A stretch of 27,192 nt of DNA from a virus (Duplodnaviria; Heunggongvirae; Uroviricota; Caudoviricetes), in IMG/VR virus record IMGVR_UViG_2874920711_000004, positions 1 to 27,192 of that record. The stretch is one strand, 5' to 3'. Positions 1,368-13,300 of the stretch are shown one piece after another (within the stretch, counting starts at the first letter, position 1; the number at the start of each line of letters is the position of its first letter). The position numbers are program-made.

Positions 1368-4300
1368 TGAGAGTGGAAACCATATTTGCTACAGTTTCTG
1401 GTTTCTTTCCTTCAGTTTTTCTTTCAGTGTCTGCCCTGTTTCTGCAATGAATGGAATGCGGATTTCCATCTGGTAACTGTCTGCGCCAGTCTTTCTGTTT
1501 GTGGTTAATACTTTCTGGAGGACGAGTCCGATTTTCTTTCCGTGAAACTCAGGTGCAACATATTTACTGACGGAAACCATATGTTGCGTTAACTGCCCAA
1601 TTCCTGTGCATCCCATCATGGCGTGAATAATGCTCGCCCCAAATTTATTTTCAGTGCCGTCATTCTTCTGAACACAAACACTGAGATATTGGATTTTCCG
1701 TCCGTCGTCGGATTCTCCAGAAAACTCAATGAATCGGGCACCTTTTTCTGATTGCTTGAGTTCTGCTTCGGTGATGTTAATGATATGCGCACCCGTTTCG
1801 GTAATAAAACCACCTTGTCCGGCGGTCAGTGCTGATTCTTCGTTATAAGTAAAAATCACTTCATCCATTAGTTATTAACCCCCATTGTTCTCCAAATACA
1901 AAACCAATTTCCGCCAGTGCTTCGTCCATTTTGTCGATGAACTCCGGCACCATCTCATCAAAACTCGTCATGTACTTTTCATCCCGCTCGACCACGACAT
2001 AATGCAGGCCTTCACGCTTCATGCGTGGGTCGTAGTTGGCGAAGTACCAGGCGTCCTTGTCTGTAACCCACATGCTGAATTGCACCTGGGCCATGTAAGC
2101 AGGCTTGATAGCGTCAAAGCCGCCAAGCCGGAACTTCATGAAGTCGCGGGAAGTGAAGGGGCATTTAAGCTCAAGGCCGTTACCGTCGCTGCATAAACCG
2201 TCGGGAGAGCAGGCGGTGCGCATGCTTTCGTCACGAAAAATTATTGGCGTTTCCGAGACGGTAACATCCGCGATAAATTCGAAGATGGCACGGGCATCAT
2301 CTTCGTATTGCTTTCCCCATGCGAGCGACTTAGCGTTAACTTCCGGTGCCACGCCGGTACAAACTTCAGCCAGCAGGGTGTGGAAGTATGAGATTTTTGT
2401 ATCAGGCCATTTGCTGCCGGAACGTGGCTTTGCTATCACATTGTGAACTTCTGAAGCAGTGATAACACCGAGTCTCAGCTTGTGCCATCCATCATCGCCC
2501 TGGTCGAGGCTGGTAATATCCACGCCAGTTCGCTGGAGAATAATTTCTGGTGTCATGACACGGCCTCGCTGCTATTTTCCGTGGTGGCGTGAATTTTCGC
2601 TTCCGCCGTGGCCTTGTTTCTGGCAGCTTTCTTTTTGACAAAATCAAGCGTTTTGACAGCTTCTTCCTGACTGAGATATTCATGTGATGCAATCGTGCGA
2701 CGGAATGTTTTGGAACATAAGGGAAGCAGGTCATCCCATGTCTTGTTAATTTCGGTGATTGCCTGAGTGATCTCATTGATAATCTCATCTGATGCGGGAG
2801 TGACGTCACGCTCAGGGATGTGATCAGCATTCAGGATGATACCTTCACCGGCCTGAGTGTTCAGGTAGTCGATAGCTGTATCCAGGCGATCGCGACGGGG
2901 CCAGTATTTGCTGGCGCGCTTAACAATGGCTTTTCTGGCCATTTCATCGGGGAAACTATCCCACGGGCTACTTCCTCCGTTATTTCCGGCTTTGCTGCAC
3001 GCCCTGATGACCTCGATTTCCCTGTTGCTCATCTCTTCGGTCAGATAGTCGCCTTCGGATGTTTTTACGACACAATAACCGCCAATGCGTGCGCCCCTGT
3101 CTACGAATGGGTTGTATTTGTGCGTGGGGGCGCAGTCAATACCGTTGGACTCGTAAATTGAGGTAGCCTGAGTTTAACGGACACTCCTTCCTGAAATAGA
3201 ATGGCATCAGAAGGAGCTAATAATGAGCAGAAAAACCCAACGTTACTCTAAAGAGTTCAAAGCCGAAGCTGTCAGAACGGTTCTTGAAAATCAACTTTCG
3301 ATCAGTGAAGGCGCTTCCCGATTATCCCTTCCTGAAGGCACTTTAGGACAATGGGTTACCGCCGCCAGAAAAGGACTCGGTACTCCTGGTTCCCGCACGG
3401 TGGCTGAACTGGAATCTGAAATTCTGCAACTGCGTAAGGCGTTAAATGAAGCTCGCCTTGAGCGAGATATATTAAAAAAAGCAACAGCGTATTTTGCACA
3501 GGAGTCGCTGAAAAATACGCGTTAATCGAACAATGGCGACAACAATTTCCCATTGAAGCGATGTGTCAGGTATTTGGTGTATCCAGGAGCGGTTATTACA
3601 ACTGGGTACAGCATGAACCCTCAGACAGAAAACAAAGTGATGAGCGGCTAAAACTGGAGATTAAGGTGGCACATATCCGCACTCGCGAAACATATGGAAC
3701 CCGGCGGCTCCAGACGGAGCTGGCAGAGAATGGCATCATCGTTGGTCGTGACCGACTGGCACGTCTTCGTAAGGAGCTAAGGCTACGCTGTAAGCAGAAA
3801 CGCAAGTTCAGAGCGACTACGAACCCGAACCACAATCTGCCAGTTGCGCCAAATATGCTGAACCAGACGTTCGCTCCTACAGCACCAAATCAGGTCTGGG
3901 TGGCGGACCTGACGTATGTTGCCACACAGGAGGGATGGTTGTACCTCGCTGGCATCAAAGATGTTTATACGTGCGAAATTGTCGGCTACGCCATGGGAGA
4001 GCGCATGACAAAAGAGCTGACAGGTAAAGCCCTGTTTATGGCGCTCAGGAGCCAGCGCCCACCTGCCGGGCTAATCCACCACTCTGATCGAGGTTCACAG
4101 TACTGCGCATACGATTACCGGGTCATACAGGAGCAGTTTGGTCTGAAAACATCAATGTCGCGTAAAGGTAACTGTTACGACAACGCTCCGATGGAAAGCT
4201 TCTGGGGAACGCTGAAAAATGAGAGCCTGAGCCACTATCGTTTTAATAACCGGGATGAAGCCATCTCAGTAATACGGGAATACATTGAGATTTTCTACAA

Positions 4301-10300: not shown

Positions 10301-13300
10301 CGGAAGAAATGCGCCGTAAATTGCTGGATATTTCCTGCACATCGGAAAAGTCTTCCCGCTTTGGTTTCAACGTTAATCTTTAATTAACCCCATCCCCGAT
10401 CACATATCGGGGATTAAATTAAATATCTGGATTAATTAACCGGAGGATTTGTCATGCTCAAACCTCACTACGGAACCGCATTAGTTTCTCGCGAGGACGT
10501 TAAACCCGGTACAGCAATTCTTTACAACGGGCGTTATTACATGGCGTCAGCTAACGTTAATAATGCACTTTACGCACATTCACTGATTGAAAAAATCCGC
10601 ATTATTTCAGATGCAATCGAAGTTTACCTGAACCATAAAGGCCAACCGTTAATCTCACCAGCCTGAAAGGAAATATCATGCTCAATCAAAAAATTAATAT
10701 CAATGTAAAAAACGTCATAACGCCAGCAGAAACGATAATGGGAGAAGTTTTTATGGATGATAAAATCATCGCCTATTTTGTCGTCCTGCCTGATGAGGCT
10801 ATTTCTGTTATTGATACGGAAGGCAATGTTATGTTTATCGCGGAACATTCAGAAGACATCGCATTACAGGCCGCTGCATATTTCTTCGCTAAAGAGCAGG
10901 AGGAAGAATGTAACTGCCCTGTCTGTCAGCTTTCCCGACAAATTAATTTAATGCATTAACCGGAATCAGGAGTTCCGCCATGAACGCATACCTCACCTGC
11001 GACCGCATAGAGGAGCGTCGCTGGGTTAATCAGCATATTCAGGATGAAAAGGATAAATGGATTGATGATCGGGCGCAGGAGCTTATCAGCATGTTCCCCG
11101 ATAAACCATTGCTTATGAGCAGCCTTTTTTTACCCAAAGAAGCCCAACTGGCACTCACTGGCGAAAAAGCTGAAGAGGCGTACAACGATTATATCTCAGC
11201 GATCGCCTATGCTCGGGCGGAAGAAGAATGGGAGAGAAAATTCTCCCCTGTCCTTTCTGATTTTCAGGACCAAAAAAATGTTCGATATCGTTGAATTTGT
11301 TAAGCAGCAGGAGCGCTTTTTCTGCAAGGCATTAACTGAACCGACGCTGACATGGGCGAAGGAAAGTCAGTTTGCAATTCAGCAATTCCAGAAAAATGCC
11401 TTTCTGGCTGACACAGCACGGGCAAATCTGCCCAGCGCACAGAACGCTATCATCAATGTTGCCGCCATCGGCATAACCCTGAACCCGGCCAGCAAGCTGG
11501 CGTATCTGGTCCCACGAAAAAAGGCTGTATGCCTGGATATCAGTTATATGGGGCTTCTGCATCTGGCACAGGTCACAGGAGCCATTCAGTGGGGCAATGC
11601 AAACTTGTTTACGAGAAGGACATTTGAGGTGTACTGGCAATAGCGGACACTACCATTTGTTCTTTTTTTAAGCAGCCATCTGATGATATTTTTCCCTGAA
11701 GGCTGCCGGGGAGATATTCCCCAGACGAGAGTGACGACGCTGACGATTGTAGAAAATCTCAATGTATTCCCGTATTACTGAGATGGCTTCATCCCGGTTA
11801 TTAAAACGATAGTGGCTCAGGCTCTCATTTTTCAGCGTTCCCCAGAAGCTTTCCATCGGAGCGTTGTCGTAACTGTTACCTTTACGCGACATTGATGTTT
11901 TCAGACCAGACTGCTCCTGTATGACCCGGTAATCGTATGCGCAGTACTGTGAACCTCGATCAGAGTGGTGGATTAGCCCGGCAGGTGGGCGCTGGCTCCT
12001 GAGCGCCATAAACAGGGCTTTACCTGTCAGCTCTTTTGTCATGCGCTCTCCCATGGCGTAGCCGACAATTTCGCACGTATAAACATCTTTGATGCCAGCG
12101 AGGTACAACCATCCCTCCTGTGTGGCAACATACGTCAGGTCCGCCACCCAGACCTGATTTGGTGCTGTAGGAGCGAACGTCTGGTTCAGCATATTTGGCG
12201 CAACTGGCAGATTGTGGTTCGGGTTCGTAGTCGCTCTGAACTTGCGTTTCTGCTTACAGCGTAGCCTTAGCTCCTTACGAAGACGTGCCAGTCGGTCACG
12301 ACCAACGATGATGCCATTCTCTGCCAGCTCCGTCTGGAGCCGCCGGGTTCCATATGTTTCGCGAGTGCGGATATGTGCCACCTTAATCTCCAGTTTTAGC
12401 CGCTCATCACTTTGTTTTCTGTCTGAGGGTTCATGCTGTACCCAGTTGTAATAACCGCTCCTGGATACACCAAATACCTGACACATCGCTTCAATGGGAA
12501 ATTGTTGTCGCCATTGTTCGATTAACGCGTATTTTTCAGCGACTCCTGTGCAAAATACGCTGTTGTAGATTCAATCTGTCAATGCAACACCCCTTTCAAT
12601 TATCTCTTTCGGTGTTTTGAACTTCAGTGTCTTTCTCGGTCTGTTGTTTAGCTGAGCAGCAACCAGATCTAGTTCATGTTGAGTATATTGGGCAAGACAT
12701 GTCTTTTTAGGAAAGTACTGCCGAATTAGCCCATTTGTGTTCTCATTTGTTCCCCGCTGCCAAGGACTCTGAGGATCGCAGAAGTAAACTTTAACGCCGG
12801 TGCTGACAGTAAATTCTAGATGTCTGGCCAGTTCCATTCCTCTGTCCCATGTCAGTGATTTTCTGAGTTCTGACGGTAAACTCAGGAATTTGTCGGTAAG
12901 AGCCTGATTTACTGAGACAGAATCTTTGCCCCTGAGTCTAAGGATGATCGTATAACGTGATTTTCGGTCTACAAGTGTGGCTATATGAGAGTTTTTTGTA
13001 CCTGAGACTAAATCGCCCTCCCAATGCCCCAGAGAGCGTCTGTTATCGATATTTCGGGAACGTTCGTGAATTGGTGTTCCGTTCACTATGTTAATCGTAC
13101 CTCTTTCGCCTTTGCGGGTATGACGCCTGCCATGGCGAAGGCTATGCGACCGTCGCAGATGCTGTATATTCAGGTGGTGTAGCGCTTCACGGCTACGAAA
13201 GTACAGCGTTTTATAAATTGTCTCAGGTGATATTCGCAGCGTTTTTTGACGTGGTTTTGTTCGCCTTAACCATCCTGATATTTGCTCTGGAGACCATTTC

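Follow-up and report, generated by a model that had tools for sequence, protein, structure and literature searches.

A prophage recT gene split by IS600 supports IS insertion followed by inversion of a 7.2-kb segment as a probable history

Inversions mediated by insertion sequences (ISs) have been described in Shigella flexneri 5b, where one was attributed to IS600 and one was a nested re-inversion (PMC1550401). In the IS3 family, IS2, IS3, IS150 and IS911 have been reported to form IS dimers, and junctions between their inverted repeats (IRs) give rise to deletions and inversions; IS30 favours hot spots and its own ends, causes deletions and inversions as well, and is known to interrupt IS911, as IS30A, in Escherichia coli K-12 (PMC9333248). 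Here we analyze the recombination gene recT, divided by IS600, in a 27,192-nt stretch of DNA (the window; positions 1 to 27,192 of the IMG/VR caudoviricete record IMGVR_UViG_2874920711_000004). The window is the early region of a lambdoid (Stx-phage-like) prophage in decay, whose late genes have been lost; it lies in an IS-rich chromosome (GCA_002949875.1, CP026824.1), the ipaH and IS content of which point to a Shigella host. We found no published description of this particular locus. Its genes are ordinary members of the RecT, YqaJ-type exonuclease, GamL, IS600, IS30 and IS911 families, and the rearrangement is an ordinary IS-bounded inversion within a prophage remnant, as is usual for IS-rich Shigella genomes.

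An earlier interpretation made from the DNA alone (hereafter, the sequence-only reading) had proposed that IS600 splits recT into two inverted halves, each flanked by the same ATT trinucleotide, and its coordinates for both halves were all correct (Table 1). On the plus strand, the N-terminal part (recT-N) runs at 11624/11625 into the right end of an IS600 copy (...GACATT/TGAGGTGTAC), and on the minus strand the left end of another copy meets the C-terminal part (recT-C) at 3159/3158 (...CTACCTCA/ATTTACGAG), with ATT, read on the recT sense strand, at both junctions. Joining 11278-11624 to the reverse complement of 2553-3155, which drops one ATT, yielded 950 nt that aligned end-to-end with the 951-nt recT of the E. 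coli O157:H7 ATCC 43889 Stx2a prophage with three mismatches and one 1-nt gap, as expected of a contiguous homolog. In BLAST, the wider join of kilR, gam, recT, exo and an SSB-like gene (~3 kb) matched in one single alignment at 98.8% identity, and at least 80% of the gam-recT-exo join is found at one location in 126 E. coli genomes. At the protein level, the conceptual joined and repaired RecT gave one continuous match to the Pfam RecT profile (PF03837; gathering cutoff, 24 bits) at 86.9 bits, with residues 31-204 on profile positions 5-177, and recT-C alone scored 53.1 bits on profile positions 106-177. Placed on the intact gene, the two halves overlap by three bases (15170-15172 in the E. 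coli prophage locus L001), and ATT occurs once in the empty site, the uninterrupted 28-mer ACGAGAAGGACATTTACGAGTCCAACGG, at five loci in four genomes (L001, L016/L027, L022 and L031). This identifies ATT as an authentic target duplication of 3 bp, as had been proposed. The two recT fragments are one pseudogene, and the split gene would not be expected to provide single-stranded DNA annealing activity here.

The two IS600 copies that the sequence-only reading had placed at these junctions are both present, the first at full length and the second as its 939-bp right-hand part, beyond which lie IS30 and a piece of IS911. A repeat scan recovered them as a 941-bp inverted repeat (3482-4421 and 11625-12565), over which copy 2 differs from copy 1 by two mismatches and one indel. 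Copy 1 contains orfA (3223-3525), an A7G slippery site (AAAAAAG, 3475-3481) and orfB, which extends to 4430; the orfA and orfB products carry HTH_Tnp_1 and rve domains. Its imperfect terminal repeats, of the form TG...CA (TGAGGT...GGACAC), are equal at 20 of 30 positions between the left (IRL, TGAGGTAGCC...) and right (IRR, TGAGGTGTAC...) ends. All of the diagnostic traits of IS600 are thus found at this locus, namely near-identity to the annotated element, the terminal repeats with the slippery site, and the 3-bp target duplication. The right end of copy 1 is inserted in a replication helicase gene, 62 nt short of its stop codon.

Table 1. Coordinates of the split recT gene, the IS elements and the neighboring genes in the window.
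Feature	Coordinates	Strand	Remarks
IS911, element positions 73-1250 (window starts inside)	1-1176	+	99.7% over 1176 nt to annotated IS911
abc2' remnant, first 27 codons of phage anti-RecBCD gene, cut by IS911	1177-1258	-	Aligns to L013
DUF669 / SSB-like gene, downstream of exo	1389-1868	-	phrog_743, E=1.5e-56; colinear with L001
exo (YqaJ / lambda-exonuclease family)	1861-2556	-	PF09588, 98.2 bits; L001 annotation 'lambda exonuclease family protein'
recT C-terminal part (recT-C)	2553-3158	-	Codons 116-316, open and in frame from junction (frame 0 translation)
Target-site duplication copy	3156-3158	-	ATT on recT sense strand = AAT on + strand
IS600 copy 1, full length, 1263 bp	3159-4421	+	99.8% to annotated 'IS3-like element IS600' over 1263/1264 bp
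DEAD/DEAH helicase (replication gene), last 62 nt absent	4378-5878	-	Window 4419-5891 = L001 6637-8111; L001 CDS ends 6578
Flipped segment, 7203 bp	4422-11624		Colinear with L001 at 90-99%; Pfam labels for contents
gamL (host nuclease inhibitor)	10980-11294	+	PF28165; gamL in L001 annotation
recT N-terminal part (recT-N)	11278-11624	+	Codons 1-116; 1-nt contraction of G5 run at 11591-11594
Target-site duplication copy	11622-11624	+	ATT
IS600 copy 2, right-hand part only (orfB region)	11625-12563	-	939-941 bp; left 325 bp including orfA gone
IS30, complete	12564-13784	-	100% over 1221 bp to annotated IS30; bridges IS600 right part and IS911 left part
IS911 left 335 bp (orfA part)	13785-14119	-	Perfect inverted repeat of 1-263; left end abuts ead/DUF551 gene
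Start of distal early-left block (ead/DUF551 gene)	14120-14677	+	PF04448, PF13935; colinear with L001, L013

Relatives were found by look-ups of window proteins in public assemblies, followed by module maps and junction searches. In CP026875 (L031), the distal block, exo, recT, gam and onwards to cro, helicase, primase and the lysis genes are colinear, with no IS in either recT or the helicase gene, and QWSV01000142 (L022) has an intact, colinear recT with IS911 already at the anti-RecBCD breakpoint described below. CP026836 (L027) has a helicase/IS600 junction identical to that of the window, an empty ATT site and a 7.2-kb segment colinear with recT-C/exo; its distal block is already inverted and attached to an IS600 left end inside the anti-RecBCD gene. 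The uninverted arrangement that the sequence-only reading had suggested looking for is hence documented in the first two genomes, and the unflipped segment with an empty ATT site in the third. Compared with CP026836 and CP026875, segment 4422-11624 stands in the opposite orientation to recT-C/exo in the window. The gene order of the window recurs in three other assemblies, CP027027 (L033), AMJQ01000062 (L004) and PSSP01000001 (L035), both recT junctions recur in several further assemblies, and in short-read assemblies the segment appears as a 7.2-kb contig bounded by IS600 (L025, 7199/7203 bases).

In PSSP01000001, the segment is flipped between two complete IS600 copies, with IS30 in each, whose flanks read CTT..AAT and AAT..TTG. 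Swapping the right-end flanks back produces AAT..AAT, a perfect recT duplication, and CTT..TTG, which is identical to the flanks around the helicase copy of CP026836. The same test can be carried out by half in the window, where the recT flanks and one helicase flank survive. The flanks in PSSP01000001 and the layout of CP026836 therefore indicate that the window lineage differs from CP026836 by the ATT insertion and the flip of 4422-11624, the two events originally proposed.

Alignment to L001 places window positions 4419-5891 (helicase) and 9154-11625 (rha to recT-N) in plus orientation, 1328-3158 (recT-C, exo and the SSB-like gene) in minus orientation, and the distal early genes from 14423 on in plus orientation and in order. 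Judged against the distal early genes (14120 on), the 7.2-kb segment is ancestral in orientation and only recT-C/exo is reversed. This would suit a history in which the recT-C/exo block moved by excision and re-integration, for instance as an IS30- or IS-bounded circle that re-entered by homologous recombination, with no flip of the segment, as would the position of the block between IS600 and IS911, each with an IS30 hot spot. In CP026836, however, the distal block is inverted relative to recT-exo before the ATT insertion, so that a single segment flip suffices to explain the window and the ancestral-looking orientation of the segment results from two inversions cancelling out. Relocation of the block would take at least three events, and the scars it predicts, such as truncated IS copies beside the block, are absent. 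With more steps and no such scars, excision and re-integration via IS30 was rejected, and we consider relocation in general highly improbable.

The position of the insert, the target duplication, the inverted order of the parts, and the layouts that relatives show before and after inversion together support IS600 insertion at ATT with a flip of 7.2 kb between inverted IS600 copies as the explanation of the split recT. We propose that an IS600 would already have resided in the replication helicase gene, 62 nt short of its end, when a second copy entered recT at codon 116 in the opposite orientation, duplicating ATT. Recombination between the inverted copies, most likely by RecA-dependent homologous exchange within the 0.94-1.26 kb that they share, would then have flipped 4422-11624. 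In consequence, gam and recT-N now point in the direction opposite to that of recT-C, exo and the SSB-like gene, these three lying past the replication genes on the other strand, and the Red-like gam-recT-exo module is broken. The IS600 on the recT-N side would have lost its left third in a later IS30/IS911-associated event. We favor this two-step route, insertion followed by homologous recombination between inverted copies, as the probable one, because recombination between kilobase inverted repeats occurs readily and Shigella offers well-documented cases of IS inversion.

The inverted order and the flanks bear out the earlier claim of an inversion, but not uniquely its attribution to recombination between the copies, since a one-step event would leave a product identical in sequence. 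In such an event, the pre-existing IS600 at the helicase end, for instance in the form of a tandem dimer whose IRR-IRL junction is active, would attack ATT in recT by transposase-driven intramolecular inversion, so that the second inverted copy and the flip arise together, with one ATT per new junction, inverted, and the old flanks kept on the other ends. The donor IS600 is indeed present in CP026836 without the ATT insertion, and IS2, IS3, IS150 and IS911 provide family precedents for dimers whose IR-IR junctions generate inversions (PMC9333248). No published demonstration of dimer-driven inversion was found for IS600, however, and homologous recombination between 1-kb inverted repeats is both sufficient and common. 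IS3-family elements normally move by a copy-out/paste-in mechanism via a circle, and this usual route yields simple insertions. We infer that the exchange was homologous rather than transposase-driven, and likewise the order of the later IS30/IS911 events; the one-step route is possible but unlikely.

Several observations weigh against the two-step history. The uninverted intermediate it passes through, recT-N-IS600-recT-C, did not appear in any of the six assemblies in which the ATT site is occupied (from look-ups of five window proteins), as the one-step route would predict, although six assemblies of one lineage are too few for a missing intermediate to count, and its absence from so small a sample does not exclude the inversion model. 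IS600 copy 2 of the window has no left end, and its second flank is lost. CP026836 is not a strict ancestor, having its own, independent IS600 insertion in recT with a GTA duplication. Finally, the alleles at two polymorphic IS600 sites (4138 and 4173) correspond only imperfectly to the flanks from one genome to another. The record has thus been blurred by conversion or repeated exchange, and ordering the events by these polymorphisms was abandoned as uninformative, the alleles being shuffled among genomes.

IS600 has struck recT in this prophage family at least three separate times. Besides the ATT site of the window lineage, the GTA-duplicated insertion of CP026836 lies ~250 nt deeper into recT (L027 2874-4137), and a third event, 63 nt into recT, is a deletion that joins IS600 to a truncated lambda-type int beside ybhC (L015 10362-11625 and L036 3414-4677).

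The sequence-only reading had also noted that the two halves are offset by one frame near the junction. The offset is present in the sequence, but it lies 31 nt upstream of the junction, at a G5-to-G4 contraction, and five other assemblies with the same recT-N/IS600 junction have the extra base and a 116-amino acid (aa) in-frame open reading frame (ORF). A comparison of the window with its sister genome CP027027 revealed 12 one-base contractions of G/C runs against three substitutions over 9.2 kb, partitioned into three substitutions and 11 one-base deletions in the 7.2-kb segment and no substitutions and one deletion in the recT-C/exo block. Every one-base deletion is a G or C run shortened in the window (at 4757, 5334, 6398, 6405, 7264, 7616, 7938, 8181, 8964, 11248, 11594 and 1883). 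Such a ratio of indels to substitutions is not biological, and we therefore read the contractions as consensus errors of the assembly; the offset in recT-N, on this comparison, is probably one of them and not biology. The contractions split or change the ORFs of helicase, cI, gam, exo and recT-N: two of them break the helicase ORF, a G6-to-G5 contraction at ~1883 alters the C-terminus of exo, and a C5-to-C4 contraction at ~11245 lengthens the gamL ORF. Compared with another strain, cI shows two G/C-run contractions and otherwise no mismatches. A 1-nt loss in a G run near 4335, within orfB of IS600 copy 1, falls outside the CP027027 comparison and resembles the 12 contractions; it is probably an artefact as well. 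The apparent frameshifts in recT-N, gam, exo, cI, helicase, IS600 orfB and IS911 should not be interpreted as gene decay; the same probably applies to those in an ipaH gene described below.

An assembly so error-prone at the base level, with a repeat of ~1 kb, raises the question of whether a long-read assembler joined the wrong flanks across IS600. Homopolymer errors, however, do not make structural misjoins, and the same order is found in CP027027, PSSP01000001 and AMJQ01000062, in all three of which the helicase-side IS600 carries IS30, a distinctive joint, with one contig spanning helicase-IS600::IS30-recT-C. We therefore regard a misassembly as very improbable.

The rearrangement of 4422-11624 is neither the first nor the last in this region, so that the flip put forward by the sequence-only reading stands whereas its history of one insertion and one inversion is incomplete: an older rearrangement in the anti-RecBCD gene preceded it and remodeling by IS30 and IS911 followed. 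The right end of the window-edge IS911 abuts the truncated anti-RecBCD gene (TGTTGACCACTTCA/TTTTGATATT), a junction common to at least five other assemblies and seven short-read (Logan) contigs, including one genome with an intact recT. The alignment of the remnant to the E. coli H9Ecoli prophage (L013) ends at 6425, within a 'phage anti-RecBCD protein' coding sequence. The older rearrangement has its breakpoints inside this abc2-like gene, IS911 joining abc2' by its right end in one case and IS600 joining abc2'' by its left end 89 bp further on in the other (L027 12858/12859), so that the junction elements differ; in CP026836, the distal early block (ead ... int) has been turned around with respect to exo/recT. 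This rearrangement is older than the 7.2-kb flip. A second, IS911-bounded inversion was considered and dropped: the IS911 flanks form no duplication in the window (TTT vs GAG/ATG), in a relative, 426 bp of the anti-RecBCD/ead region separate the two IS911 breakpoints (1176/1177 and 14119/14120), and the distal block of CP026836 is already inverted.

On the recT-N side, the window and AFFZ01000056 share the order IS600 right part-IS30-IS911 left part-ead. The arrangement in CP027027 is more complex, and in PSSP01000001 the IS600::IS30 is still complete. The IS600/IS30 junction itself is the same in AMJQ01000062 (L004), CP027027 (L018/L033), AFFZ01000056 (L020), UYIS01000022 (L021) and PSSP01000001 (L035). 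IS30 occupies the homologous site of two IS3-family elements, IS600 and IS911, 2-4 nt downstream of the A6-7G frameshift site. GT is duplicated on both sides in the IS600::IS30 and IS911::IS30 insertions of AMJQ01000062 (L004 6850-8074 and 11295-12519), a further insertion in the hot spot is located at L035 2228-3452, both orientations are used across genomes, and the uninterrupted IS911 site is present in L015. The hybrid joint may have originated either when copies of IS30 recombined or when IS30 transposed.

The flipped segment contains the truncated helicase, a cro-like gene, cI (7127-7841, plus strand), hicAB (8249-8844, minus strand), rha (9586-10383, plus strand), kilR, gamL and recT-N; the hicA/hicB toxin-antitoxin pair is a moron between cI and rha, where an E. 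coli relative has a restriction-modification pair. The distal early-left block runs on to int at 19148-20221. Directly after its ead/DUF551 gene stands an IS2-like element (14674-16190, with a 301-aa OrfB), inserted identically in CP026836 and CP026875, followed by two neighboring 260-aa ORF6N/antirepressor-like paralogs (17103-17885 and 18085-18867) with stretches of 77-80% identity (repeat families D2 and D3). Beyond int, an ipaH-type effector gene (20784-22544) encodes an LRR_TTSS N-terminus and an E3-ligase-like C-terminus in a reading that spans at least three frames; given the homopolymer errors of the assembly, this gene may be intact in reality. At the right edge, a perfect 245-bp direct repeat (26621-26865 and 26948-27192, with an 82-bp spacer) lies within an IS66-family region, its second copy cut by the window end; Tandem Repeats Finder reported nothing for it.

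To the left of the window (L003 13013-16347), beyond IS911, follow a 221-aa ORF that had no Pfam or PHROG match, an IS630-family element, a 182-aa DNA invertase, and then ymdF and rutG, which therefore place the remnant near the wrbA/rut region. The invertase gene (phrog_125), ~5.7 kb left of the window, could suggest that the inversion is a programmed switch by which a site-specific recombinase controls the early region. Yet the crossover regions are 0.94-kb IS600 sequences and not the short sites of a recombinase, flipping has split a gene, four assemblies share one fixed layout, and IS630 and IS911 separate the invertase from the locus, which together make a switch exceedingly improbable.

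The locus represents genome decay, with no regulatory or adaptive role implied. It illustrates how IS600 put two parts of a Shigella prophage out of action, the Red-like recombination module and the replication helicase, and it provides a worked example of an IS-bounded inversion with pre- and post-inversion genomes. Should the one-step route be true after all, the locus would record, in nature, an inversion driven by the transposase of an IS3-family element. For annotators, it carries the warning that numerous frameshifts of this assembly resemble consensus errors in homopolymers and not decay.

Among described systems, the inversions between S. flexneri 5b 8401 and 2a 301 (PMC1550401) resemble the one reported here in that inverted IS copies bound the flipped segment, with IS600 named for one of six, and their nested inversion and re-inversion restoring colinearity resembles the two successive rearrangements that we propose. 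Unlike them, the present inversion is a small one of 7.2 kb within a prophage remnant; it divides a gene, both halves of which retain the 3-bp duplication, and one of its IS copies was later truncated by IS30/IS911. Similarly to what has been reported for IS30 and IS911 (PMC9333248), the window lineage has IS30 inside IS911 and IS600 with a 2-bp GT duplication, and its IS600-IS30-IS911 hybrid joint is of the kind made by IS30 deletions. The E. coli O157:H7 ATCC 43889 Stx2a prophage (NZ_CP015853) has the order rha-gamL-recT-exo-SSB-like and the same helicase-type replication module, in addition to the nucleotide identity over 3 kb given above, but its copy is intact and colinear, whereas that of the window is interrupted and rearranged, in a prophage that has lost the late genes. 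Like the invertible segments of the Hin/Gin/Cin/Pin systems, the segment lies between inverted repeats and exists in a flipped state; in contrast to them, it has no short recombinase sites, no dedicated recombinase acting on it and no functional alternative expression state, and its repeats are whole transposable elements.

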